Part shown: one piece after another, positions 4,551 to 45,704 of the stretch
Numbering within the stretch: position 1 is the first letter of the stretch
Layout of the letters: each line of letters starts with the position of its first letter
DNA from: a virus
Lineage: Duplodnaviria > Heunggongvirae > Uroviricota > Caudoviricetes
Direction: 5' to 3' (one strand)
Virus record (IMG/VR): IMGVR_UViG_2737471838_000004
Span: 1 to 55,334 of that record
Length of the DNA stretch: 55,334 bases
The notes under the pieces: generated by a model
What the model was told of the DNA's origin: nothing
Database searches by the model: none
Seen by the model: only the letters and a program-made list of their open reading frames with translations
Translations under genes and position numbers: made by a program

Positions 4551-7500
4551 TGACCAAGAACCAGAACTCCTTGTAACAAGCGCAAGTCCAGCCCTTCTTT
4601 CTGTACCTGTACTGGTGTTGGTGTATTCTTCTGTTATTGTTATGGTTACTTTTTGCGCCGTGATCCCTGTGACGCAATGTGATACCGTAAATCCAAATTG
4701 AGGCGTAGATGCCGCCCTCACGACTGAATATGTTTTACTATTTCCATTAATGTTTATTGTCACTTTTATGGTTGTTGACTGAGAATACTGATAGTAAGTC
4801 AGGTGATAAGGAATCATCACAAAAACGGTTTTAGAAAGCGAACTCGAAGACGAATCTGTATAAGTTTTAGTAACAGAACGCGATGCACTGTCCGACTGGT
4901 TAGGGAATGATGCTTGAGGTATAAAGTTAGTTGACGCGACATCGCCTACAAAACTTGTAGCCTCTAGCGACCCTTTAAATTTACCGCTATTTGCATACAC
5001 CGCCCCCCTTACCGTTACGTTGTTAAGCTCCGCGCTACCGTTTTTATTAATCATCCAGCCAGCCGAACCGGCTTTATAGTTGGTTGACTGTATTTGCTGT
5101 GCAATTTTAGCTGTAGTGATTGCTGCATCTGCAATTTTAGCCGTTCCTATTGATGCGTTTTTAATAAACGCTTCGCGCACATACATTGCACCATTTGTAA
5201 CATAGAAAGGTGTCGTATATGTGCCGTTTGCCGCCGTCATTAGCACAAAACGGTCAACAAGGAAAATGCATTGTGATTGTGTGCTACTTCCCGATCCGGT
5301 CATACCTAACGAAATCCCGGACGCATACTTCATGCCGTTATTGTCAGTAGCGATCTTAATGCTCCACGTTGCCGACATATCTGTTTCAATACCGGCAATT
5401 GCGGTTTTGTTTTCCTCGATTGATACCGATTGCCCGTCGATTGAGGCCGTGATACTTTCGATCTGCGTGGCGGTTGATTCCTTGTAAGATGTAAACGCTT
5501 CGCCCCACTCCGTGATCGATGCTTCGTTTGCTTCCAGTGATGCGCTAATCTCCGCAAACTGTGTAGCGTTGGCCTTTTCGTGGGTAGCAAGTGCCGTTTG
5601 CATTTCGGTAATGGCTGCCGACACATCATCATCGATTTGGGCTTGCAATTGCTCCAGTTTCTGCGCGGTCGCCTCCTTCTCTGTAGCAATAACTGAATCA
5701 ATGCGCTCAATTTCTGCTTTCGTTTCCGCTTTCTGGCTCTTATATTGCGCCGTTAACGATGTGCGGGTTCTGGCGTTAGCTAATGAGTTATTCATAAGCG
5801 CAATGGCTGCGTTTTGCAGGCTGGCGCGGGTCTGCATTAGCTCGTTTTCCTGCTCCGTCAATTCTACGCTGATTTCGTTAATCTGGCTTTCGTGCTCCCC
5901 AATTCCGTCCTCATTGTTTTTTATACGTTCTTCCAGATCGGCGGTTGATTCCTTCAGGTCGGTAATAGTCTGGTTCATTTCTTCCACGTCACCCATTAAA
6001 CCTCCTGTTACTTCGTCCATGGAGTCCTTGATCATGTTCTGGAATTGTTCGCTTTCCATAACTTCATTCAGCACGGCATCCGTGATTTCTTCGAAGTTTT
6101 CGGAAGGTTTACCGCTGGCTTCGATAAAGTCAGATACACCGAAAGCGTTTTTTGTGCGCACGTAAACGTAATACGTGTGCCCCGTTGCCATCCCGCCGAA
6201 GGTCCATTGATACCCGCGCCCGGTGAATTGCGCTGATGTGGTTACTTTGGATGGATCTGTGATCTGATTTTCCCCTGAGTAGTAGAACTCGTATGCTGTA
6301 TCAGTGGTTAGGGTTGTTTTGCTGATCGGGTACACCGTTGCCTGAAAAACACCAGGCACCCAATTAACGCCGACGGGGGCCGCTGGCGCACCAATAACCA
6401 GATCCACAATACTTTCTGCGCCCTTCATGCCAGTGTCATTACGACCGCGAATACCAAGCGTGTAGCTGCCTGCGTCGAGGCCATAAAATTCATAGCGGTA
6501 ATTCGTGGTTTCATAACTTGCCACCACGCGACCGTCTGCATTATATACGCGGATTTCAAAGGTAAGACGATGCGTTGTTGTCTGTGTTTCCCATGTTGCG
6601 CGGCATTGAACCGTTTCAGAACCAGCGTTTAACACTTTCAGATTTTCAATGTTAGGTACGCGGAAGTGATTAAGCGTGTCGTTGTTGATTTCGAAGACTG
6701 CGCCTTCATCAACTACGGCCTGTTTGTTAGGGTCGTGCTGTGCGGCTTCGATAGTGTATACGCTGTTATTTTCTGTTTCCGCTACGCTGGTGATCCTACA
6801 TAAAACGGGTTTTGCTGCTTCAGTCGATACAGCAAAAACAGTGCCATTGCGAATCCATGCCGGGGCCGCAGCAAGGGTAATATTGTTTCCGTTAATTCCG
6901 GTGATCTGGTGTTTTTTAAATTTACCATCGTTATCAAGTAATCTGATGGTGTCACCAGCCGCGATATATTCAGAATCAACCTTATCGACCGTTATCACTT
7001 TGCCATTGTTCGCCACGATACGACCGCCCAAACGAGCACCAGCGCGGTTATTGTCGAGGATCTCGATAATATCCCCAGGGGTGAAGTGAATGGCGTCACG
7101 GGCCATTTTAAACGTAAATTTCGACGGCTCGCGTTTTGCTGTTTCGATCAGCCATTTACCAGCGCGGTAAGCCTGTCCGCGAGAAGTACAGCCGAACGCC
7201 TCCAGCGTGGTTTCGTTGTAGCCGTCGCGGGCGATCAGTTCATCGTCAGAGACATACTCTTTTGACTGTTCCCAACCGTTACCCGGATCAGTCCAGGATA
7301 CAATCACGGCGTTGTAGCACTCAGCGCGGGCAAGGCTCGAACGGGTGAATACACCATCTACGACATTTGCGTTCGTGATAGTTGCAATCGGATCTTGTGG
7401 CGCATCAATCATCACTGTAAGACGTTGCCCATCCCATAACGCAATACCACGGAACATGCCAGCTATATTATCAAGTAAGTCGCGGGCGCTCATTTGCTCT

Positions 7501-8504
7501 GTGATGTAAGCGTTAAGCGTCATGCGAGGCTCTTTCCCACCGTAGCCATCATCAACCAACTGATCGCAATATTGTGAAAGCGTGTATAAAGCGCCATCGT
7601 CAACATCAATATAACCAGCCTGTCGAGCAAGGCCGAAACGGTCGTTTTTGATCAGGTAGCGGAACAACCACGCGGGGTTATTGGTGTACGCCTTTTTAAA
7701 GCCACCCAGCCATAAACCGGAATAAGTGCGCTTTTCCGGGTCGTAGTTATCAGGAATATCAACAATCAGTCCGCGAAGGTGATAGGTGCGGGTGGGCGTG
7801 TCAGTGTACTGATCATGATCAATCACCACTCCAGCTACAGCGGTGTGAGGATAAGACAAATTATCGTCGATGATTTCGCTGTAACTGCTCCACCGTGTAT
7901 CATTGCTAAGTAGATCGCTGTTGCTGTCTGCCGTTACTCGGCGAACGCGAATATCAAACGGCTTTTCATCCGGCGCGTTGATAATGTGAGCTTCCAAGTA
8001 TTCACCGCTCTGTTTACCAGGCCCGATGGTAATATCCTTAACCAGCGTCCACGTAGATGATGATGATGGCTTAACATCAACCATTAACATAACTGACGTG
8101 TTGTATTGATTGCCCATATCATCTGACTGAACGAGAGCGTCAACGCCAACATTTAATCTGACGCGGGTCACGTTCGGATCTGATACCGTCCTGACCAGTG
8201 GGGTGTCATGCGTTACTTTTGCGTTGACAATAACGGTTGATTCAATGGCGTTGAAGCCGTTGATTGGTGATTGATCAGCCGTACCATTACGCCATGCCAC
8301 GCTAACACCAGGGACTGATGTGTTTCCGCTTGCGTCAGTGATGGGAGTGTCATTAAGCATCACGCTGTTTAATGGAGCGGTTTGATTGACGCAGCCAAAA
8401 ATTGGACCTTCACTTAGAATATCCAGAACCCGATAAAATTGTTTGTGATACAAATTATCATTAATCAAGGTAGGTGTTTTCGCCTTACCGCCACCACTAG
8501 ACAT
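4548..8504 (-). CDS. J: host specificity / central tail fibre protein J
   Basis: ORF 4548..8543; start moved to the internal ATG (MSSGGGKAKTP) preceded by GGAGG; lambda gpJ-like N-terminal and central regions plus a long coiled-coil segment and divergent C-terminal domain. Confidence 0.85.
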   Translation of the reverse strand: MSSGGGKAKTPTLINDNLYHKQFYRVLDILSEGPIFGCVNQTAPLNSVMLNDTPITDASGNTSVPGVSVAWRNGTADQSPINGFNAIESTVIVNAKVTHDTPLVRTVSDPNVTRVRLNVGVDALVQSDDMGNQYNTSVMLMVDVKPSSSSTWTLVKDITIGPGKQSGEYLEAHIINAPDEKPFDIRVRRVTADSNSDLLSNDTRWSSYSEIIDDNLSYPHTAVAGVVIDHDQYTDTPTRTYHLRGLIVDIPDNYDPEKRTYSGLWLGGFKKAYTNNPAWLFRYLIKNDRFGLARQAGYIDVDDGALYTLSQYCDQLVDDGYGGKEPRMTLNAYITEQMSARDLLDNIAGMFRGIALWDGQRLTVMIDAPQDPIATITNANVVDGVFTRSSLARAECYNAVIVSWTDPGNGWEQSKEYVSDDELIARDGYNETTLEAFGCTSRGQAYRAGKWLIETAKREPSKFTFKMARDAIHFTPGDIIEILDNNRAGARLGGRIVANNGKVITVDKVDSEYIAAGDTIRLLDNDGKFKKHQITGINGNNITLAAAPAWIRNGTVFAVSTEAAKPVLCRITSVAETENNSVYTIEAAQHDPNKQAVVDEGAVFEINNDTLNHFRVPNIENLKVLNAGSETVQCRATWETQTTTHRLTFEIRVYNADGRVVASYETTNYRYEFYGLDAGSYTLGIRGRNDTGMKGAESIVDLVIGAPAAPVGVNWVPGVFQATVYPISKTTLTTDTAYEFYYSGENQITDPSKVTTSAQFTGRGYQWTFGGMATGHTYYVYVRTKNAFGVSDFIEASGKPSENFEEITDAVLNEVMESEQFQNMIKDSMDEVTGGLMGDVEEMNQTITDLKESTADLEERIKNNEDGIGEHESQINEISVELTEQENELMQTRASLQNAAIALMNNSLANARTRTSLTAQYKSQKAETKAEIERIDSVIATEKEATAQKLEQLQAQIDDDVSAAITEMQTALATHEKANATQFAEISASLEANEASITEWGEAFTSYKESTATQIESITASIDGQSVSIEENKTAIAGIETDMSATWSIKIATDNNGMKYASGISLGMTGSGSSTQSQCIFLVDRFVLMTAANGTYTTPFYVTNGAMYVREAFIKNASIGTAKIADAAITTAKIAQQIQSTNYKAGSAGWMINKNGSAELNNVTVRGAVYANSGKFKGSLEATSFVGDVASTNFIPQASFPNQSDSASRSVTKTYTDSSSSSLSKTVFVMIPYHLTYYQYSQSTTIKVTININGNSKTYSVVRAASTPQFGFTVSHCVTGITAQKVTITITEEYTNTSTGTERRAGLALVTRSSGSWS

Positions 8505-9063
8505 ATAGACCTCCAGTTTCGTGTAATTTCGTGTAACCGGCACCAGCTTTGTTTAGCTCTTCAATCATAAACGACCGCCACGCAACGGCGGCGTTAATCG
8601 CCATCTCGAGACCGCCCCACGACATAACGCTAAATGATTTGCTAATTCTTTTAGCGTTATCAGTGGTAATGCGTGCTCTAATAGATCTACCTTCTGCGTG
8701 CCAACACACTCCAAAAGGCAAGCCGTTAAACCTTATTGAACGACCTACAGTCATGTTTCTGGCGTTGCCTTTTTTATCTGTTACGCGTATGTTGTTGAAT
8801 TTATTGTTAAGCCCATTACCATCAATGTGATCTATGATTTCACCGCGTTTTAATTTTCTGCCGCTGCATAATTCGAAAACAATCCGGTGTGCATAATAGC
8901 GGCGGCCCTTCCATGTAATTTTCCAATACTTATTGCCGCTTTTTGCTGCTACTATTTTCCCCGCTGCGTCGCCCGCCCGTGCCGTTCTGCTGTTAGCGGT
9001 GACCTTCCACCTTAAACATGAAGGCGAATCCTCATCATAAACAAACAATTCAGACCAGTTCAC
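8497..9063 (-). CDS. HNH homing-endonuclease-like protein (HNH + AP2-like domain) inserted between tail genes I and J
   Basis: 188 aa; YAHRIVFE...GEIIDHIDGNGLNN...NIR motif pattern of HNH_3/AP2 endonucleases; paralogous to three other ORFs in the window. Confidence 0.7.
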   Translation of the reverse strand: MNWSELFVYDEDSPSCLRWKVTANSRTARAGDAAGKIVAAKSGNKYWKITWKGRRYYAHRIVFELCSGRKLKRGEIIDHIDGNGLNNKFNNIRVTDKKGNARNMTVGRSIRFNGLPFGVCWHAEGRSIRARITTDNAKRISKSFSVMSWGGLEMAINAAVAWRSFMIEELNKAGAGYTKLHETGGLYV

Positions 9064-10283: not shown

Positions 10284-10988
10284 TTAACCGACCTTGCTTG
10301 ATCCGGGGAAACATGAAATTGGTAACGGATTGGGGCGCGGGAAACGCAAACGGCAACCGCTCAGGCGGTGGCTGCATTTATCCAGTTTTGGATCGCTGGT
10401 CGATTCGTCTTTATCTGTAGCTACAGGGCCGCCACTGTATCCGCAACCGTCGCCCCGGTATTGCCACTGGCAAACGTCAGCGAGGATTGTGCGCCCAGGG
10501 ATAACTGCCTTGTCGGCATCAATTGGCGTTGAAAGTTCATATTGCACCTGGTCGGCTGTTTCTTCGCTCATCGCCTCAACGACGTAAAAAGATACAGCCT
10601 CGATAGATGGATCTGCATCTGGATTGCCATTGGGGAAGTTGACAGCGTCCAGATATTTTACTTCCACCTGGCGGCGCGTAACCTTCATTCCTCGCAGGTC
10701 GTTGAAATCGTTGTTCATCCCGGTGATTAGCCCGCCAATGTTGGCTACTACCATTTGCGGGCGCGAGTAAACGCCTTCGTTTTTCATTTCGAAGCCAGTA
10801 GCCTCGATTGGGTAGCTGTTGTAAGCCAAGCCCTTCCAGATAACCGGGCCGTAATAGCCATTCGTGCCGGAATGGAAGCGGATAACCTCGCCACCCAGGG
10901 GCGTGAGGTCTAATTCAAACAAGTCAATTACCGCTCCGACCCCTGCATCGACGGAATCAATAATCATTTCTGTAGGTATGCTGCGCAT
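10284..10988 (-). CDS. L: minor tail protein L
   Basis: 234 aa; clear similarity to lambda gpL (FLDAVNF.NGN, RGD.CGYSG, DKCS..LSGC). Confidence 0.85.
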   Translation of the reverse strand: MRSIPTEMIIDSVDAGVGAVIDLFELDLTPLGGEVIRFHSGTNGYYGPVIWKGLAYNSYPIEATGFEMKNEGVYSRPQMVVANIGGLITGMNNDFNDLRGMKVTRRQVEVKYLDAVNFPNGNPDADPSIEAVSFYVVEAMSEETADQVQYELSTPIDADKAVIPGRTILADVCQWQYRGDGCGYSGGPVATDKDESTSDPKLDKCSHRLSGCRLRFPRPNPLPISCFPGSSKVG

Positions 10989-11041
10989 TTTATCACCTTG
11001 TCATTTTGTGATCGCCATCACGCTAAATCATACCAAAACGG

Positions 11042-11070
11042 TTGATAGCGCTTTTTACAATATGTATATT
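11042..11070 (+). promoter_or_regulatory. sigma70-like promoter of moron cassette B (TTGATA-17-TATATT), -10 overlapped by inverted repeat ACAATAT-gt-ATATTGT
   Basis: near-consensus -35/-10 with 17-bp spacer in the L/M intergenic region, upstream of plus-strand ORFs. Confidence 0.4.
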
Positions 11071-11116
11071 GTACTCAAAAGGAAGCATGGTTAACAAAAT
11101 GGCGCGGAGGTGTTAT

Positions 11117-11272
11117 ATGGCTGACAAGGTGTGGAGGTTGACGGTGTTCCTGGCTGATGGCAGGGAAATGACTGTAGCTCTGTATAAAGACGAAGGCGAG
11201 GCACTGACTGACGCGCTTTTACTTGCTGAAGATGACCGCGTTTTGGGGTACAGGATAGAACCTGTCAAATGA
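11117..11272 (+). CDS. hypothetical small protein (moron cassette B)
   Basis: ORF 11042..11272 trimmed to the ATG preceded by GGAGG (MADKVWRLTV...); alternative start at 11087. Confidence 0.4.
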   Translation: MADKVWRLTVFLADGREMTVALYKDEGEALTDALLLAEDDRVLGYRIEPVK

Positions 11273-11284
11273 GAGGTTAACAAA

Positions 11285-11638
11285 ATGCAAAAGTATCGTC
11301 TTGATGTCTGGATGGCTGGTAGTGATGATTGGGAAGGTTACGGCTTGCATGACAGTTACGAAATGGCGGTCGAGGAAGGAGAAAAACTCGTTCGATTCTT
11401 CGGTCGCGCAAGAGAATTCAAAATTACTCCAGTACAAATACCGGATAAGGTGGAAGATATGAACCCGAAAGATATTAACTTTAACGTCAATGTTGAATTT
11501 GCTGATTCTATGGATCAATCTTGCCCTGGCGAAATACACGCAAAAGGTTTCCCGGCTGACGATCCTGAAGCAAAACGTGAATACGAAAAAGCGGCAAAAG
11601 ATTTCTGTATCGACAATTTGTCTGCGTTCAATAAATAG
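11285..11638 (+). CDS. hypothetical protein (moron cassette B)
   Basis: 117-aa ORF, acidic, tightly spaced after previous ORF. Confidence 0.5.
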   Translation: MQKYRLDVWMAGSDDWEGYGLHDSYEMAVEEGEKLVRFFGRAREFKITPVQIPDKVEDMNPKDINFNVNVEFADSMDQSCPGEIHAKGFPADDPEAKREYEKAAKDFCIDNLSAFNK

Positions 11639-11647
11639 GGTGGGAGT

Positions 11648-11896
11648 ATGGCGCGGCGTAATCACGGGGATTATGTGTACACGTTGAAACAGGCCGCCCG
11701 CCTTATCGGTTATCATGAACACGAATTTATTGATTTGCTGATTGAGCGCGGGATACTGTACCAGGTCTGTTTAACACTGTACCCGAAAGCGAAATACCTA
11801 CAGGAAAAGTTATTCATCATCATGACGGATGAAAACCAGGTCAACCATTCATTCGTTACTGATAAGGGCGTTAATTATCTGCGTGATAACTTATAG
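11648..11896 (+). CDS. hypothetical protein, possible HTH (moron cassette B)
   Basis: 82-aa ORF; GGGAG RBS; segment YTLKQAARLIGYHEHEFIDLL resembles a helix-turn-helix. Confidence 0.45.
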   Translation: MARRNHGDYVYTLKQAARLIGYHEHEFIDLLIERGILYQVCLTLYPKAKYLQEKLFIIMTDENQVNHSFVTDKGVNYLRDNL

Positions 11897-12052
11897 GTGA
11901 CAGATTATGAAAAATAGAAGTTTTGGCGCTAATAATAATGGGACTGATAGTATTTGGCGTTCATGCTGCCGATTGGGACTGGGCGGCGATAGCCAATAAT
12001 ATGGCGCACGCACACCCAATGAGTTTGCTGTATATTAACTACTAAAAGAAAA

Positions 12053-12080
12053 CCCCGCACGAAGCGGGGTTGTTTTTATA
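12053..12080. terminator. bidirectional rho-independent terminator, near-identical to the one at 4521..4550
   Basis: stem CCCCGC/GCGGGG, loop ACGAA, T-tract; about 41 bp including the preceding AACTACTAA shared with the 4509..4550 site (2 mismatches). Confidence 0.6.
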
Positions 12081-12276
12081 CACCATCAACCAAAAATAAA
12101 ACCTCCTTGCCTTCCCTGGATCTGCATCCTACATACCCATCACCAACATCATGAAGATACCATGTATCGCCATTGTCAGCCTTTACAGTAAGGTCGTTGA
12201 TCTCGTAGTCGTCAAATAATGTAAAAGCGTCAGTTTTGTCCACTACACAAGTCCCGTACATAACAACCACCCCCAA
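12076..12276 (-). CDS. hypothetical small protein downstream of M
   Basis: 66-aa ORF immediately after M on the same strand. Confidence 0.35.
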   Translation of the reverse strand: MGVVVMYGTCVVDKTDAFTLFDDYEINDLTVKADNGDTWYLHDVGDGYVGCRSREGKEVLFLVDGV

Positions 12277-12630
12277 TTAGCCAACAACTTGCTCAAATGT
12301 TGCGTTTAGCGTGTATACAGGCCCGTCCTTTGTCATACTCCAGCTACGGCAAACAAAAAGCCTTTGCACGCCATCCATAGACGGCGACCAGTAAAAAGCC
12401 TCGACAGCGCCGCGCGCCCTCAAGAATGCTTCTGCCTGGATCGCCACGTTCCCACTATCACCGCATCCTGCGCTACTGCCTTTAAAAACCAGGGTGTAGC
12501 TATCAAGCAACGTGTTAATCCCTTTCGCCTGGCGCTGTTCATAACCATCACCAAGTTTAACGACCGACACATTTGGTTCCCTGGTCACGCTGTAGCTTCT
12601 TTGCGGCGTCCATCTGAAAACTTCCGGCAT
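12277..12630 (-). CDS. M: minor tail protein M
   Basis: 117 aa; lambda gpM-like motifs (FRW.P, GDGYEQR, FEQVV); GGGGGAA RBS. Confidence 0.8.
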   Translation of the reverse strand: MPEVFRWTPQRSYSVTREPNVSVVKLGDGYEQRQAKGINTLLDSYTLVFKGSSAGCGDSGNVAIQAEAFLRARGAVEAFYWSPSMDGVQRLFVCRSWSMTKDGPVYTLNATFEQVVG

Positions 12631-12729
12631 GATTCCCCCTATAAGTTACATATTGCATACATCTTTACGCGCTTCTACGCGAAAAATGATAACTTCGTCA
12701 CAAGAATTATACCCAGTTTACGAAATGGC

Positions 12730-12758
12730 TTCACACAGGACGCAACAAGATGTATACA
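12730..12758 (+). promoter_or_regulatory. candidate promoter of moron cassette C (TTCACA-17-TATACA) with upstream AAATGGC module
   Basis: 17-bp spacer; the 12-mer AAATGGCTTCAC is shared with the cassette D promoter at 15951..15962. Confidence 0.35.
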
Positions 12759-12799
12759 GAAAGCAAGAAGAGAAAGCAGTACCGACAAAGGGGGCCAAT

Positions 12800-12955
12800 A
12801 TGGAACGCTATGTAGTGGTAATGCTAAACAAAGCATTCGAACAGGTGGAAGTTGCGATTGTGAAGGGTTTTGATGATGCATTCAAATACGGTCAATTCAT
12901 GATGAATGCAAAAGAAGATGAATACCGTGATTTCTTCCTGAAAGTGGTCAACTGA
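12800..12955 (+). CDS. hypothetical small protein (moron cassette C)
   Basis: ORF 12629..12955 trimmed to the ATG with AAAGGGGG RBS (MERYVVVMLNK...). Confidence 0.4.
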   Translation: MERYVVVMLNKAFEQVEVAIVKGFDDAFKYGQFMMNAKEDEYRDFFLKVVN

Positions 12956-12975
12956 TTGATTGCGTGGGGTGAGTT

Positions 12976-13230
12976 ATGAAATTGGTGGCGATTGGCAAAA
13001 ACCTGAAAGCACAGAAAAACGCACAGGAACGGATCATCAAAAAAGGCAAGGCTTTATTAAATTCTTTCCTGAAAAAAGAGGCCAACCCCAAAAAATTACG
13101 CGATGGCTACGGCTATAAATTTGACATCAACCCCGATTGGCGGTTATTCAGCGAAGATTTAAAGATGTGGTTAATTATTGACCATCTGGAATACAACCGC
13201 CACTGTGGCGTAAAAGGGGCGCATAAATGA
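12976..13230 (+). CDS. hypothetical basic protein (moron cassette C)
   Basis: 84-aa Lys-rich ORF. Confidence 0.45.
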   Translation: MKLVAIGKNLKAQKNAQERIIKKGKALLNSFLKKEANPKKLRDGYGYKFDINPDWRLFSEDLKMWLIIDHLEYNRHCGVKGAHK

Positions 13231-13533
13231 GGTGAAATATGGATGACGATAAATTCACCTGGCGGGAGATCTGGAACATCTGGCAGGTGATGTTTGCTCG
13301 CAGCTACATAGCAAGAAACGGCAGGTTGTGATTTGCGGAGGAAAATAAAATGAAAAACCCGGCAAATAAAAGCAATGTAAAACGTATGGCATGGGTGCTA
13401 AAATATATGGATAGCAAAGGGGATACATATACATGTCCATTTTTCAGGTATACTGACGCGGTGTTTACAAGAAGTGTACACGGAGGGAAAATTGAGAGAG
13501 GATATACAAGATTTGAGAATAACTAAAAGATAA

Positions 13534-13560
13534 CCCCGGCATTGTACCGGGGTTTTGTTT
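13534..13560. terminator. bidirectional rho-independent terminator (cassette C / tape measure gene)
   Basis: stem CCCCGG/CCGGGG, loop CATTGTA, T-tract TTTTGTTTATTTG; preceded by TAAAAGATAA. Confidence 0.55.
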
Positions 13561-15907
13561 ATTTGCGGCGCGGTTGCAACATTCCTCCCGGTCGTTGCGA
13601 TTCCCTTGCCATCATTTTCATTGCTACGCGCTCCATCGTCTGCTCAAGTCTGCGGCTATCTTCGTCGCTAAATCCGTTTGTGGTCTGAACTGTGATTTGC
13701 ACAGGCATATTGATGCCGCCACCATTGAAGAGATCGCGGCCAGGAATTACCCTACCATTTTCGCCAGGAATCATATACTGACGCCCGTTGCTCGTCTGGA
13801 ATAGCTCAGGTATTCCGTGTTCCCCTACTCGATACAGGCTACCACCATTAACAGAACCACCATTATAACGCCCGCCACCAAAGATTGACGTTGCCAGCGA
13901 CATGATCGCAGAAAGCGCCGCAGCACCAGCCGCCGCCCAGCTACCACCAGTTGACGCAGCCGTAGCCGCCGCTGCCGGGGCCGCCGCCGCTGCAATCTGG
14001 CCTTGTGCCGCTACCGCGCCTGCCGTGGTACTTGCTTGCGTGGCCTTGCTTTGTGTTTCCATCATTAACTGATCTGCTATCCAGTTAGCGGCAATTTCTG
14101 ATAGTTTGTTGCCAACGGTGTTAAGTATGCTACTTCCCAGGTTGGCAAAAACCTCGCTTAATGATTGAGTACCGTTTAACAGTCCTGTAAGGGCATTGCC
14201 CATGCCACCTTTCAGGCCGCTGGCGCAAGCGCCGATCAGTCCGTTTGTTTCGCTTTGCGCCTGCCATTGCTCCCACTTCAGATCCCGGATCTGTTGTTCG
14301 TATTCCAATTGCGCCTGTCTCTGTTGCGCCTCTGTAGCGCCCAGGTCCAATAGCATTTGCTTTCTTACGGCCCATTCATTTTGCGCCTGTTTGATTGGGT
14401 CAATTTCGCCCTTAAGCTGGTCCATTGGGCTAACTATGTGGTCCCATTTGTCGCGTAGCTCATCAACAGGGATTTGCGCCAATTCGTCCTTCAGTTCCTT
14501 GCCTATACCTTTCTGCGCGGCCTTGTACTCAAGGAGGGTTATTTTTCCCTGGGCAAATGCGGCGTCAATGGCCTTGCCGTTCTCCAGTGCTTTACGCATA
14601 GCGGCGGCGTCTTTGTTGTACTGGTCAGAGACTTTTATACCTTCATCACCAAGCCGATCAGCTTCAGATTTCTTGTCTTTTTTGCCCTTTTTACCTTTTT
14701 TCGGTTTACCAACTGGCTGATCGAATCCCGTGATCTTACCATCGTCAGCCTCACCCTGTTTCTCCATGAACTCATCATAGGCGGCAGTTGCGTTTTTAAT
14801 GTCGTTTGCAAACGTCATGACCTTACCAACTGTAGGGCCAAATTTCTTCTCGTTGTTGCTATTTAGCTCTTCCTTGCGCTTGTCAATGATTTCCTTCATC
14901 CATTTGTAGCCATCCATTAGCGCCTTGATTGGCGTTACCATCCTGATAATCTCTTCCGCCACCTCGCCAGCCTTAACAGCAACATCATCAAACATGTCGA
15001 TAAATTCGCTGCCAGCCGTTTTTAGTGTATTGAAACATGTTGCGGCGAATTTTGCGCCTTTACCTAATCCCTCAACGCCACCAGTGATTAAGTCTATTGC
15101 CGACACAACGCCATCTGATATGCCGAAAAGATCGTCTAGCTGTTCGACAAGTCCCATAACCTCAACTTTAAGCTCGTTGAAGGCCATGCCGGATGTGCGC
15201 GGCAACTGTGCGAACTTCTCGTTTGTTTCCTGCGTGGCGGCCTGGATCGCGTTAAGCATCCTTTCAGCAGTGATCTTGCCGTCCAGCATTTCAGCGCGGA
15301 ACTGACCCATTGACAACCCCATCTGTCGGGCCATTTCCTGTATGATTGTTGGGGTGTTGTCACGGATTGAGTTAAATTCTTCAGCCTGCAACACGCCAGC
15401 ATCAATAGCCTGGCGGAACTGGCGCATGGAGTTTGATAGTTGTTCCGCAGACACGCCGCCCAGGTTGCCGAGTTTTTGCAGCGTGCTAACCAGGTTGAGG
15501 ACCTGGCCTTCCGTAGCGGATGTGTTTTTTAGCGATATAGCAAGACCTTGCCACAGATCGCCAGTATCCTTGAGGCTTTGGCCTGTTTCTTTTGATATTT
15601 CTTTCAGTCTATTGAAAACGCGTTCCGTGGCCTCCGCTTCACCTGTAAGCAGTTTGATTTTTACGCGAAGCATTTTTGCCTGCTCCGCCATGTCAATAAA
15701 CTGGCGAACCGCCTCCGCAGCAAGCAACAGATGAATGACCCTGGATAGTGCTTTGATTGAAGTCTTAAGCGTGTTCACCTGGCGGTCAGCGCGTTTTGCG
15801 CCACGCTCGATACTGTCAAAAGCCTGGTCCGCCTGTCGCTGAGCGACTAGAAGTTGACCAGTTTTTGCATCAACTTCGTAATAAATTGTACCTAAACTGG
15901 TGGACAT
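13559..15907 (-). CDS. tail length tape measure protein
   Basis: 782 aa; long alpha-helical protein with Gly/Ala-rich C-terminal part; positioned between tail chaperone and M. Confidence 0.85.
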   Translation of the reverse strand: MSTSLGTIYYEVDAKTGQLLVAQRQADQAFDSIERGAKRADRQVNTLKTSIKALSRVIHLLLAAEAVRQFIDMAEQAKMLRVKIKLLTGEAEATERVFNRLKEISKETGQSLKDTGDLWQGLAISLKNTSATEGQVLNLVSTLQKLGNLGGVSAEQLSNSMRQFRQAIDAGVLQAEEFNSIRDNTPTIIQEMARQMGLSMGQFRAEMLDGKITAERMLNAIQAATQETNEKFAQLPRTSGMAFNELKVEVMGLVEQLDDLFGISDGVVSAIDLITGGVEGLGKGAKFAATCFNTLKTAGSEFIDMFDDVAVKAGEVAEEIIRMVTPIKALMDGYKWMKEIIDKRKEELNSNNEKKFGPTVGKVMTFANDIKNATAAYDEFMEKQGEADDGKITGFDQPVGKPKKGKKGKKDKKSEADRLGDEGIKVSDQYNKDAAAMRKALENGKAIDAAFAQGKITLLEYKAAQKGIGKELKDELAQIPVDELRDKWDHIVSPMDQLKGEIDPIKQAQNEWAVRKQMLLDLGATEAQQRQAQLEYEQQIRDLKWEQWQAQSETNGLIGACASGLKGGMGNALTGLLNGTQSLSEVFANLGSSILNTVGNKLSEIAANWIADQLMMETQSKATQASTTAGAVAAQGQIAAAAAPAAAATAASTGGSWAAAGAAALSAIMSLATSIFGGGRYNGGSVNGGSLYRVGEHGIPELFQTSNGRQYMIPGENGRVIPGRDLFNGGGINMPVQITVQTTNGFSDEDSRRLEQTMERVAMKMMARESQRPGGMLQPRRK

Positions 15908-37081: not shown

Positions 37082-37240
37082 AATGCTCTCTCCTTTTCAG
37101 GTGATTTCTACGCATTTCAGCGCTGCCGGATTTTTAAAGAGCATTTCGTTTGCTTGAAGTATACAAAATGGATACACCATAACAAGACAAAAAGCGCCAT
37201 TATGTGATCCGCATCACGCAATGACGCCATTTTGTAAATT

Positions 37241-40736: not shown

Positions 40737-40835
40737 TTTGGCTTCCTCCGCACCGTAAACCTTTTGATTTCGGCTTACAAAACGGATATGCGATCACAAT
40801 ACAAAATGTATATTTATGTGATCTGAATCACTCGG

Positions 40836-44903: not shown

Positions 44904-44932
44904 AATATACGCCCTGTGATATGTCGAGTCAA
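44904..44932 (-). promoter_or_regulatory. pL-like early-left promoter (TTGACT-17-TATATT)
   Basis: near-consensus sigma70 promoter downstream of the cI terminator, reading toward N; preceded by TATACAAAATGG. Confidence 0.5.
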
Positions 44933-45056: not shown

Positions 45057-45704
45057 TTATGGCAGGTTCACGATCTTCGCATCCACTACCACGCCTATGA
45101 TTTTAGATTCTGGATTCATAGGGATTGGCGGATACAGAGGATTGAGAGAACGTAAAAGCCTTTGACCTCCATCAATAACAAGCTGTTTAAACGTAGGCGT
45201 TTGCCCTTCCTCCAGTTGGGCTATAACCAGTTTTCCGTCAATAGCTGGCGCGTGCGGATCGACAAGTATCATCGTCCCCGCTGGTATACTCAATCCTTGC
45301 GGCGCGTTCATTGATTCGCCTTTAGCTACCAGCCAATAACTATCATCTGAACAAATAACGCTAGTCGTAACGTGTGGTAATGTTGATCGCCTTGTGTCTT
45401 CCATATTGTTTACTGCGTCCTTCCAGTCAACAACCGGGTAACTGCCTAAATCACGCGGCGGCGCACCCGGCAACGTGTTAGAAACAGAATCATCAATGAC
45501 CATTCCGTCATGAGTAACAGTGAATTGCCGACGACCAAGCGCCCGCATAATCCGCGCAATGTCTTCAAGATTTGGCTCACGGCGACCATTCAGCCAGTGT
45601 GATAAGCCGCCTTTCGTGATCCCCATGAGATCCGCCAATGAATCCTGGCTCATGCCTTGCGCACGCATAAGCTGCTTTGCTAAGTCATACCATTTTGTTT
45701 TCAT
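45057..45704 (-). CDS. cI: CI-like immunity repressor (HTH + S24 LexA-like autopeptidase domain)
   Basis: 215 aa; N-terminal HTH (QDSLADLMGITKGGLSHWLNGRR), C-terminal S24 motifs GESM and FKQL. Confidence 0.85.
   Translation of the reverse strand: MKTKWYDLAKQLMRAQGMSQDSLADLMGITKGGLSHWLNGRREPNLEDIARIMRALGRRQFTVTHDGMVIDDSVSNTLPGAPPRDLGSYPVVDWKDAVNNMEDTRRSTLPHVTTSVICSDDSYWLVAKGESMNAPQGLSIPAGTMILVDPHAPAIDGKLVIAQLEEGQTPTFKQLVIDGGQRLLRSLNPLYPPIPMNPESKIIGVVVDAKIVNLP

Follow-up and report, generated by a model that had tools for sequence, protein, structure and literature searches.

Accessory Units Within Phage Late Operons

Classical lambdoid morons, exemplified by gene 15 in the tail region of HK97 and by lom and bor of lambda, carry their own promoter and terminator, are lower in G+C content, and lie between conserved morphogenesis genes. 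In the sense of Juhala and Hendrix, a moron is missing from that site in closely similar phages and is expressed while the prophage is repressed. The immI region of P22 (mnt-arc-ant) is a regulatory module that resides in the late region, with a dyad operator overlapping its promoter. In phi80, taiEcA and atiEcA form a "noncontiguous operon," in which a reversed accessory gene interrupts the late operon (He et al., 2024; PMC11364771). The lysogen expresses taiEcA, and its expression falls when late transcription is on or when Q is supplied (PMC11364771). Here, we examine a cassette of four small plus-strand genes (genes 1 to 4, the third of which encodes a KilAC domain) that lies between the L-like and M-like tail genes of a 55,334-nucleotide stretch of tailed-phage DNA (IMG/VR record IMGVR_UViG_2737471838_000004, hereafter the window). 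By its sequence, the window is a mEpimmI-type (mEp021-like) temperate coliphage. With slightly more confidence than doubt, we read the cassette as a family-conserved accessory operon, reversed within the tail-gene operon of this type of phage and operated by the mechanism proposed below.

The tai/ati unit of phi80 is the closest analog. In both phages, reversed accessory genes interrupt the late operon, and a small late-strand gene adjoins the reversed unit, which in the window is a 66-amino-acid open reading frame (ORF) at 12076-12276. The plus-strand cassette separates the minus-strand M gene and this ORF from L-K-I-J, which is one of the features that define a noncontiguous operon, the other being a single RNA that covers both flanking parts and overlaps the reversed genes in antisense. 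However, the phi80 unit is located upstream of the packaging genes rather than between tail genes M and L, it consists of one gene of ~26 kDa rather than four small genes, and the defense and counter-defense activities are those reported for phi80. A tblastn search with gene 2, the KilAC protein, and the 66-amino-acid ORF against 50,697 phage records, among which phi80 is presumed to be included, returned no phi80 match.

Like classical morons, the cassette has its own predicted promoter and terminator, a lower G+C content than its surroundings, and a site between conserved morphogenesis genes, and the small membrane protein at its 3′ end recalls the morons that mediate superinfection exclusion. 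On the other hand, it is multi-gene, it is antisense to the late operon, and its core is present in every genome of the family that was examined (51 of 51). Judged from its sequence, the cassette would be like both a moron and a noncontiguous operon in the way that it works. As in P22 immI, a gene of an antirepressor family is embedded in the late region and the promoter is overlapped by a dyad; the cassette differs from immI in that it lacks Arc- or Mnt-type proteins, contributes only the KilAC domain, and has no sar-like RNA that we could find.

Position and Conservation of the Cassette

The mEpimmI, or mEp021, group was described in 2025, and among human gut isolates of Escherichia coli its phages were reported to match the lambdoid phages in frequency (PMC11893012). 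The DNA at 10900-12400 of the window is 84-94% identical to that of mEp013, mEp021, mEp044, mEp010, mEp515, mEp554, and MagusPhagus, and the annotations of these related phages show the same gene layout around the cassette. In the window, the tail operon occupies the minus strand in the order tape measure (13559-15907), M, L, K, I, an HNH-like ORF, and J. A preliminary description, made from the letters of the sequence without database searches, had named the genes flanking the cassette as L and M, and both names are borne out on the minus strand by Pfam: the L-like gene (10284-10988) matches Phage_tail_L at 5e-72, and the M-like gene (12277-12630) matches Phage_min_tail at 6e-29. The gap between them holds a plus-strand unit made up of a promoter, four small genes, and a bidirectional terminator, and this unit is oriented head-on to the late operon. 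The three plus-strand ORFs of 51, 117, and 82 amino acids listed in the preliminary description are present at 11117-11272 (gene 1), 11285-11638 (gene 2), and 11648-11896 (gene 3). Its further suggestion, that the unit is independent of the late operon, is supported at the level of prediction by a dedicated sigma-70 promoter, real genes, a dedicated terminator, and the opposite orientation. Lambda is not known to have a counterpart of the cassette between L and M. The G+C content is 0.41-0.46 in the cassette versus 0.50-0.53 in L and M, and this drop, together with a flip in GC skew, fits plus-strand coding and a foreign origin.

The comparison set of 50 loci was drawn from 7 phage records and 43 IMG/VR contigs with a gene for the 117-amino-acid protein, and conservation was counted position by position across 44 distinct sequences of relatives. 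The core, which comprises the promoter, genes 1 and 2, and the KilAC gene, is found in all 51 genomes examined. In addition, the cassette occurs in 34 of 5426 complete E. coli genomes, with the same tail-gene context in the two that were inspected. In the manual analysis of a published pangenome, the KilAC-like gene likewise counts as core (PMC11893012). The preliminary description had staked its reading on the ORFs being conserved in related prophages, and they are, in the 51 genomes as well as in the 34 complete E. coli genomes. Pooled pairwise ratios of nonsynonymous to synonymous substitution rates (dN/dS) are 0.235 and 0.234 for genes 1 and 2, respectively, and 0.105 and 0.264 for genes 3 and 4. 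Purifying selection of this strength (0.10-0.26) argues that all four are real genes. In one relative (L016), an unrelated 52-amino-acid ORF replaces gene 1, yet the regulatory region is retained. The name "moron cassette," under which the locus had been introduced, therefore applies in part: the predicted promoter and terminator and the lower G+C content agree with it, whereas the core is not sporadic but is conserved throughout the family, which argues against a sporadic moron, and variation is confined to the 3′ end.

The Promoter and the Dyad

The regulatory DNA of the cassette is under strong constraint. In the intergenic segment 10989-11116, 72 of 128 positions are invariant, whereas third codon positions of L are invariant in 21% of cases (P ~1e-17), and at 11052-11079 the count reaches 23 of 28 (P ~1e-11 against the same reference). 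The near-consensus promoter that had been proposed, TTGATA-17-TATATT, was found on the plus strand at 11042-11070; it matches the sigma-70 consensus at 10 of 12 positions, is the top match in 10500-13600, and has a predicted start near 11077. All 6 positions of the -10 hexamer and 5 of the 6 positions of the -35 hexamer are invariant. The promoter pattern recurs in 50 of 50 related loci, with a terminator 923-1387 nucleotides downstream. Elsewhere in the window, a strong minus-strand promoter at 44904-44932 (TTGACT-17-TATATT, 10 of 12) lies between the CI-like and N-like genes, and it is preceded by AAAATGGATTGA, an upstream context shared with the cassette promoter of many relatives (CCAAAATGGATTGATC).

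The inverted repeat reported over the -10 is also present, although its arms measure 8 base pairs (bp) rather than the 7 first given. At 11056-11073, TACAATAT-GT-ATATTGTA forms a perfect 8+2+8 inverted repeat that spans the spacer and the -10. Among relatives, 15 of its 18 positions are invariant, and the left arm is conserved further than promoter function requires. Of the earlier term "operator-like palindrome," the palindrome is borne out; the right arm is polymorphic without compensation, and the operator role is a putative one. Folded as RNA, the dyad is weak (-3.7 kcal/mol, not significant), which suggests an element that acts at the level of DNA; an Rfam scan of 10500-13700 returned no RNA family, and on these two grounds an RNA element was dropped from consideration. 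Two other candidates were discarded as well. An operator in common with the immunity region was rejected because further copies of the dyad in the window carry 3 mismatches and occur at chance frequency. A LexA box was rejected by inspection, as there is no CTGT...ACAG core. The ACAAT...ATTGT arms may resemble the operators of phage 434, but the center is N8 rather than N6.

The dyad could equally well consist of two opposed -10 elements, given a promoter-like sequence facing L on the minus strand (TTGTTA-18-TACAAT, 11068-11097, read from 11097 to 11068) that overlaps the plus-strand -10. Under the fuller explanation built on this arrangement, the minus-strand promoter would restart L-K-I-J downstream of the terminator, and the two promoters would compete for RNA polymerase. 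On the late strand, a strong terminator does precede L through J, the minus-strand match reaches 9 of 12, and its -35 lies inside the invariant GTTAACAAAA. Moreover, the right arm varies only at 11071, which coincides with the tolerant third position of this -10 (TACAAT or TAAAAT). However, matches of 9 of 12 are common (9 versus 5.5 expected in this 3-kb region), and because this one falls within the conserved block, its conservation is inseparable from that of the plus-strand signals. GTTAACAAAATG is also found before gene 2, where a promoter is not needed, and this points to a role in translation initiation. It would also be wasteful for a prophage to express tail-tip genes constitutively, and the conserved left arm would be left unexplained. 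Taken together, these points make competing promoters an improbable account of the dyad.

The CRP-Type Site

Class I CRP sites are centered near -61.5 (or -71.5, -82.5, or -92.5). The strongest hint of regulated expression in the cassette is a conserved CRP-type site at 11007-11022, which the preliminary description had not seen. This dyad, TGTGATCGCCATCACG (TGTGA-N6-TCACG), has one mismatch to TGTGA-N6-TCACA (9 of 10 core positions). Its center at 11014.5 is 27.5 bp from the -35 and ~62.5 bp upstream of the predicted start at 11077; in a second haplotype, one extra base places it at -63.5. Half-site positions are either invariant or conserved at 98%, in contrast to the spacer, where 5 of 6 positions vary; such a pattern would be expected where a dimeric helix-turn-helix protein binds. 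CRP-type sites number 7 in the window versus 1.55 expected, and none of 100 shuffles reached 7. The arrangement is like that of class I promoters such as lac P1, with TGTGA-N6-TCAC ~26-28 bp upstream of the -35. It differs from the lac P1 type in the predicted position of the site (-62.5/-63.5) and in having a core promoter that is already fairly strong, and CRP is a candidate regulator. CRP is not mentioned in the 2025 paper on the group, in which "promoter" is used only for the Ptac vector promoter (PMC11893012).

Other sites of this kind are found in the window. A near-identical one at 37203-37218 lies ~26 bp upstream of a TTGTTA-16-TATACT promoter that faces a NinG-like gene, and a third intergenic dyad, with the pattern TGTGATC-N4-ATCAC, is located at 40817-40832. 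Adjoining the latter, TACAAAATGTATATTT at 40800-40815 matches the cassette dyad at 14 of 16 positions.

These sites could be read not by host CRP but by a regulator that the phage encodes, in which case the cassette would be wired into the lysis-lysogeny circuit of the phage. The longer pattern TGTGATC-N4-ATCAC is common to all three intergenic sites (11007, 37203, and 40817), and weaker related sites occur on either side of the CI-like gene (44691 and 45730). Furthermore, an 81-amino-acid protein adjoining CI has weak Crp-like and winged-helix matches in Pfam (E ~5e-4, below the cut-off). On the other hand, the sites score as well as the lac site does against the E. coli CRP consensus, and a location ~26-28 bp upstream of the -35 at two promoters corresponds to class I activator geometry. 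The immunity region has only single sites, with no operator array of this type; a search for the operators of the CI-like repressor also gave no clear operator array. A phage-encoded reader is unlikely in our view.

Gene 3, a Stand-Alone KilAC Domain

Gene 3 (11648-11896, plus strand) encodes an 82-amino-acid protein that consists of a stand-alone KilAC (ANT, "antirepressor C-terminal") domain, PF03374. The match to the Pfam profile scores 29.9 bits (curated cut-off 25.3; E 7.3e-7) and aligns residues 10-82 of the protein with positions 23-105 of the 108 in the profile. The protein is 100% identical to gp71 of mEp021, where it is annotated as a member of the KilAC/antirepressor family, and its remoter homologs occur as C-terminal domains of larger proteins of the Rha or antirepressor type. 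No N-terminal AntA/B, Bro-N, pRha, or KilA-N domain was found in gene 3, and the KilAC domain is alone in the 82 residues. In contrast, characterized antirepressors are two-domain proteins, with an N-terminal domain beside KilAC (PMC9043618). AriS of Listeria phage phi10403S shares PF03374 with gene 3, a likeness at the family level only, and the KilAC domain of AriS by itself inhibits the SOS response (PMC9043618). By analogy, this inhibition is the sole experimental lead on what the cassette products may do. A scan of genome contigs with the KilAC protein gave no confirmed locus.

Phages that are not inducible by ultraviolet light (UV) often depend on antirepressors. It is conceivable that the cassette is a second immunity or antirepressor module like P22 immI, in which the KilAC protein, possibly aided by genes 1 and 2, would disable or circumvent the CI-like repressor or else affect RecA/SOS; a dedicated repressor would use the dyad as its operator, and CRP would link induction to nutrients. 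The family to which gene 3 belongs speaks for such a module, as do the action of the AriS KilAC domain on the SOS response (PMC9043618) and the report that the group is mostly not UV-inducible (PMC11893012). In the CI-like repressor of the window (45057-45704, minus strand; HTH_3 and Peptidase_S24), the catalytic residues Ser (in GESM) and Lys (in TFKQL) are retained. The repressor has Ala-Val in place of the Ala111-Gly112 cleavage site of lambda CI, and its linker contains no AG or CG dipeptide. The lack of an Ala-Gly site is a further point for an antirepressor and could explain why UV induction is reported to be mostly lacking in the group, although it was deduced from one pairwise alignment in which the linker is poorly aligned. 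Against the module, gene 3 is without the N-terminal AntA/B, Bro-N, or pRha domain of characterized antirepressors, neither an Arc/Mnt-type ribbon-helix-helix gene nor a known regulatory RNA was found, and the dyad is not a LexA box and is unlike anything in the immunity region. We consider an immI-like module doubtful for these reasons. A more elaborate version seems very improbable to us, in which the cassette would be a nutrient-sensing switch for induction or maintenance that determines whether the prophage remains silent, activated by cAMP-CRP and repressed through the dyad, with the KilAC-only protein and the two paralogs serving as an unconventional antirepressor or RecA/SOS tuner and with late transcription locking the decision.

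Genes 1 and 2, Paralogs Specific to the Phage Group

Gene 1 (11117-11272, plus strand; phrog_29559 at 8e-27) encodes a small, soluble, charged protein of 51 amino acids, or of 57 amino acids if translation begins at 11099. The conserved leader GTTAACAAAATGG (11089-11116, plus strand) has a further ATG at 11099, not noted in the preliminary description, and after it GGAGGTG, which is the Shine-Dalgarno sequence of the ATG at 11117. The upstream ATG is in frame with gene 1 in the window and is the sole possible start in one relative (L010), while in L008-type relatives it opens an upstream ORF of 7 codons. Translation of gene 1 may therefore begin at either ATG. GGTTAACAAAATG precedes gene 1 and recurs before gene 2 at 11275-11287. 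Many members of the gene 1 family (proteins P0062-P0101) are named "transporter" by NCBI; this name is almost certainly a propagated annotation artifact, without basis in the sequence of a protein of such small size, solubility, and charge.

Gene 2 (11285-11638, plus strand; phrog_38567 at 2e-49) encodes 117 amino acids arranged as a variable N-terminal beta-beta-alpha-beta domain and a C-terminal domain that is highly conserved and contains two invariant cysteines. An AlphaFold2 model has a predicted local distance difference test (pLDDT) score of ~95 over residues 1-52 and low confidence in the C-terminal domain, and a fold search with gene 2 gave generic matches only. By profile alignment, gene 1 is a paralog of the N-terminal half of gene 2, a relationship missed in the preliminary description. 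The two align end to end in hhalign with a probability of 89.6% (P 1.9e-6), while the control alignment of gene 1 with the C-terminal half of gene 2 gave P 0.59. A first run with shallow alignments was not convincing (P 0.015); the later run used more diverse alignments derived from the loci.

Both families are specific to this group of phages. Among 5.8 billion proteins, the gene 2 family forms 60 clusters confined to these E. coli phages, and the gene 1 family forms 52 clusters with the same restriction. A profile search with gene 2 of 1.84 billion representative proteins yielded 13 hits, largely fragments of the same family. Genes 1, 2, and 4 matched nothing in Pfam, NCBIfam, or PADLOC. A metagenome contig (L054) encodes at 5001-5171 a stand-alone homolog of the C-terminal domain of gene 2 (P0120, 56 amino acids), which suggests that this domain is an independent module. 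The contig is an unrelated, 58-kb, phage-like sequence, in which the homolog is found in an array of small genes with uninformative neighbors.

Proposed Mode of Operation

In the mechanism that we favor, host RNA polymerase with sigma-70 would start transcription near 11077, and the resulting transcript of ~1 kb would end at the bidirectional terminator. Cyclic AMP (cAMP)-CRP bound to TGTGA-N6-TCACG, ~62 bp upstream, would probably stimulate the promoter, such that expression of the cassette would follow carbon status. A repressor would probably shut the promoter via the dyad over the -10; it may be encoded by the cassette itself, and the winged-helix KilAC protein is the obvious candidate. 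Because the unit needs no phage late factor, it would be expected to be active in the lysogen. After induction, late transcription would read through the terminator, and it would have to cross 1 kb of the cassette in the antisense direction to reach L, K, I, and J; the group has an N-like antiterminator. Head-on transcription across the cassette should then silence it, as in phi80 tai/ati. The products, which comprise two small soluble proteins, the KilAC protein, and tiny membrane peptides, would most likely serve the prophage, either in the control of induction and SOS or in the exclusion of competing phages.

Several observations weigh against this account. Promoter matches of at least 10 of 12 number 7 in the whole window versus a mean of 14.5 in Markov simulations, and perfect 8-bp inverted repeats with a short spacer number 4 versus ~6 expected. 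Neither the promoter match nor the palindrome is thus beyond chance by sequence, and the credibility of both comes from position and conservation. The -35 of most relatives is TTGATC, which is weaker than TTGATA. At position 11071, in the right arm of the dyad, 59% of relatives have G and 41% have T, and a compensating change is absent. The CRP-type site, at -62.5 or -63.5 by main haplotype, is in neither case exactly at the canonical -61.5. That the cassette is expressed in the lysogen is something we infer. Finally, conservation throughout the family is also compatible with a role in the lytic cycle.

Such a role would make the cassette a module for host takeover or anti-defense, silent in the lysogen and switched on after infection or induction. 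Its conservation resembles that of the core gene set, the stand-alone homolog of the gene 2 C-terminal domain sits in the small-gene array of an unrelated phage contig, and the adjoining 66-amino-acid ORF has homologs among the early genes of virulent T1-like phages. However, the cassette faces against the only lytic transcription nearby, its sigma-70 promoter is self-sufficient, and the bidirectional terminator insulates it. Moreover, no matches to PADLOC or to other defense or anti-defense families were found. On these grounds, we think it improbable that the cassette serves the lytic cycle and retain the reversed prophage operon as the preferred reading.

In public records, the cassette has so far been annotated only as hypothetical proteins. 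If the preferred reading is true, it would offer a clean natural case of a cAMP-CRP-controlled prophage operon that is noncontiguous within essential tail genes, as well as a handle on the role of a stand-alone KilAC domain and on two protein families without relatives outside this phage group. If its predictions fail, the cassette would be one more conserved set of small phage genes.

The 3′ End, the Terminator, and the 66-Amino-Acid ORF

The 3′ end of the cassette is variable. Nearly all relatives finish with at least one tiny single-pass membrane peptide of 23-49 amino acids, of which there are three unrelated types; some carry a soluble protein of 67 amino acids at this end, and some have an optional insert of 77-79 amino acids ahead of the KilAC gene. 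In the window, gene 4 (11907-12045, plus strand) corresponds to a small single-pass membrane peptide, which in relatives is 45 amino acids long (MKIEVLALIIMGLIVFGVHAADWDW...INY), and it is frameshifted. The short hydrophobic ORF ending in NY-stop that had been reported here is indeed present at 11923-12045 and ends in INY. The window has A5 at 11910-11914, compared with A4 in six mEp phages that encode the intact 45-amino-acid peptide; this additional A, which the preliminary description did not note, puts the ATG at 11907 out of frame with the hydrophobic ORF, so that the conserved ATG-started frame is lost. The frameshift could be a true inactivation or a homopolymer sequencing error. Other relatives (L032 and L042-L046) have truncated forms of 28 amino acids, which start either at this same internal Met or next to it (MGLIVFG... 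or MWLIVFG...). With regard to features of a type I toxin-antitoxin system, Rfam gave no known RNA family in 10500-13700, and no dedicated antisense promoter was identified.

The shared terminator of the preliminary description corresponds to a strong hairpin at 12051-12071, which serves both the cassette and the convergent late-strand genes. This bidirectional intrinsic terminator is called on both strands and has U-tracts on both sides, with hairpin energies of -16.9 kcal/mol (z -4.1) and -15.5 kcal/mol (z -2.7). Its stem is kept in relatives, while the loop varies.

The 66-amino-acid ORF (12076-12276, minus strand; phrog_3249 at 1.6e-22) lies directly downstream of M and abuts the terminator. 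Its homologs are found in virulent T1-like phages at 39-52% identity; in Rtp the homolog is rtp57, which belongs to an early small-gene cluster. That the ORF encodes a tail component was considered and dropped, since the Rtp homolog is among early genes rather than tail genes. Going by its homologs and position, the ORF is an accessory gene outside the plus-strand unit. Its position matches that of the counter-defense gene in the phi80 tai/ati arrangement.

Other Insertions in the Tail-Gene Cluster

A second reverse-facing cassette is located between M and the tape measure gene (12629-13554) and has its own bidirectional terminator at 13532-13554. It encodes a 51-amino-acid protein (phrog_29810), an 84-amino-acid protein with a ParE-like toxin domain (Pfam 1.6e-11), and more small ORFs, and it may contain a toxin-antitoxin pair. 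No promoter match of at least 9 of 12 was seen upstream of it. Between tail genes I and J, an ORF on the minus strand (8497-9063) encodes a 188-amino-acid HNH-endonuclease-like protein. Phages mEp021 and mEp515 have it at this location, whereas mEp013, mEp044, mEp010, and mEp554 do not, and it looks like a mobile, homing-type insertion. For reverse-oriented accessory cassettes, the tail-gene cluster of the mEpimmI-type family seems to be a hotspot. In a prophage of E. coli STEC308 (L053, 9805-10594), another reverse-facing insert lies just past the tape measure gene and is annotated as "type VI secretion system-associated protein TagO."

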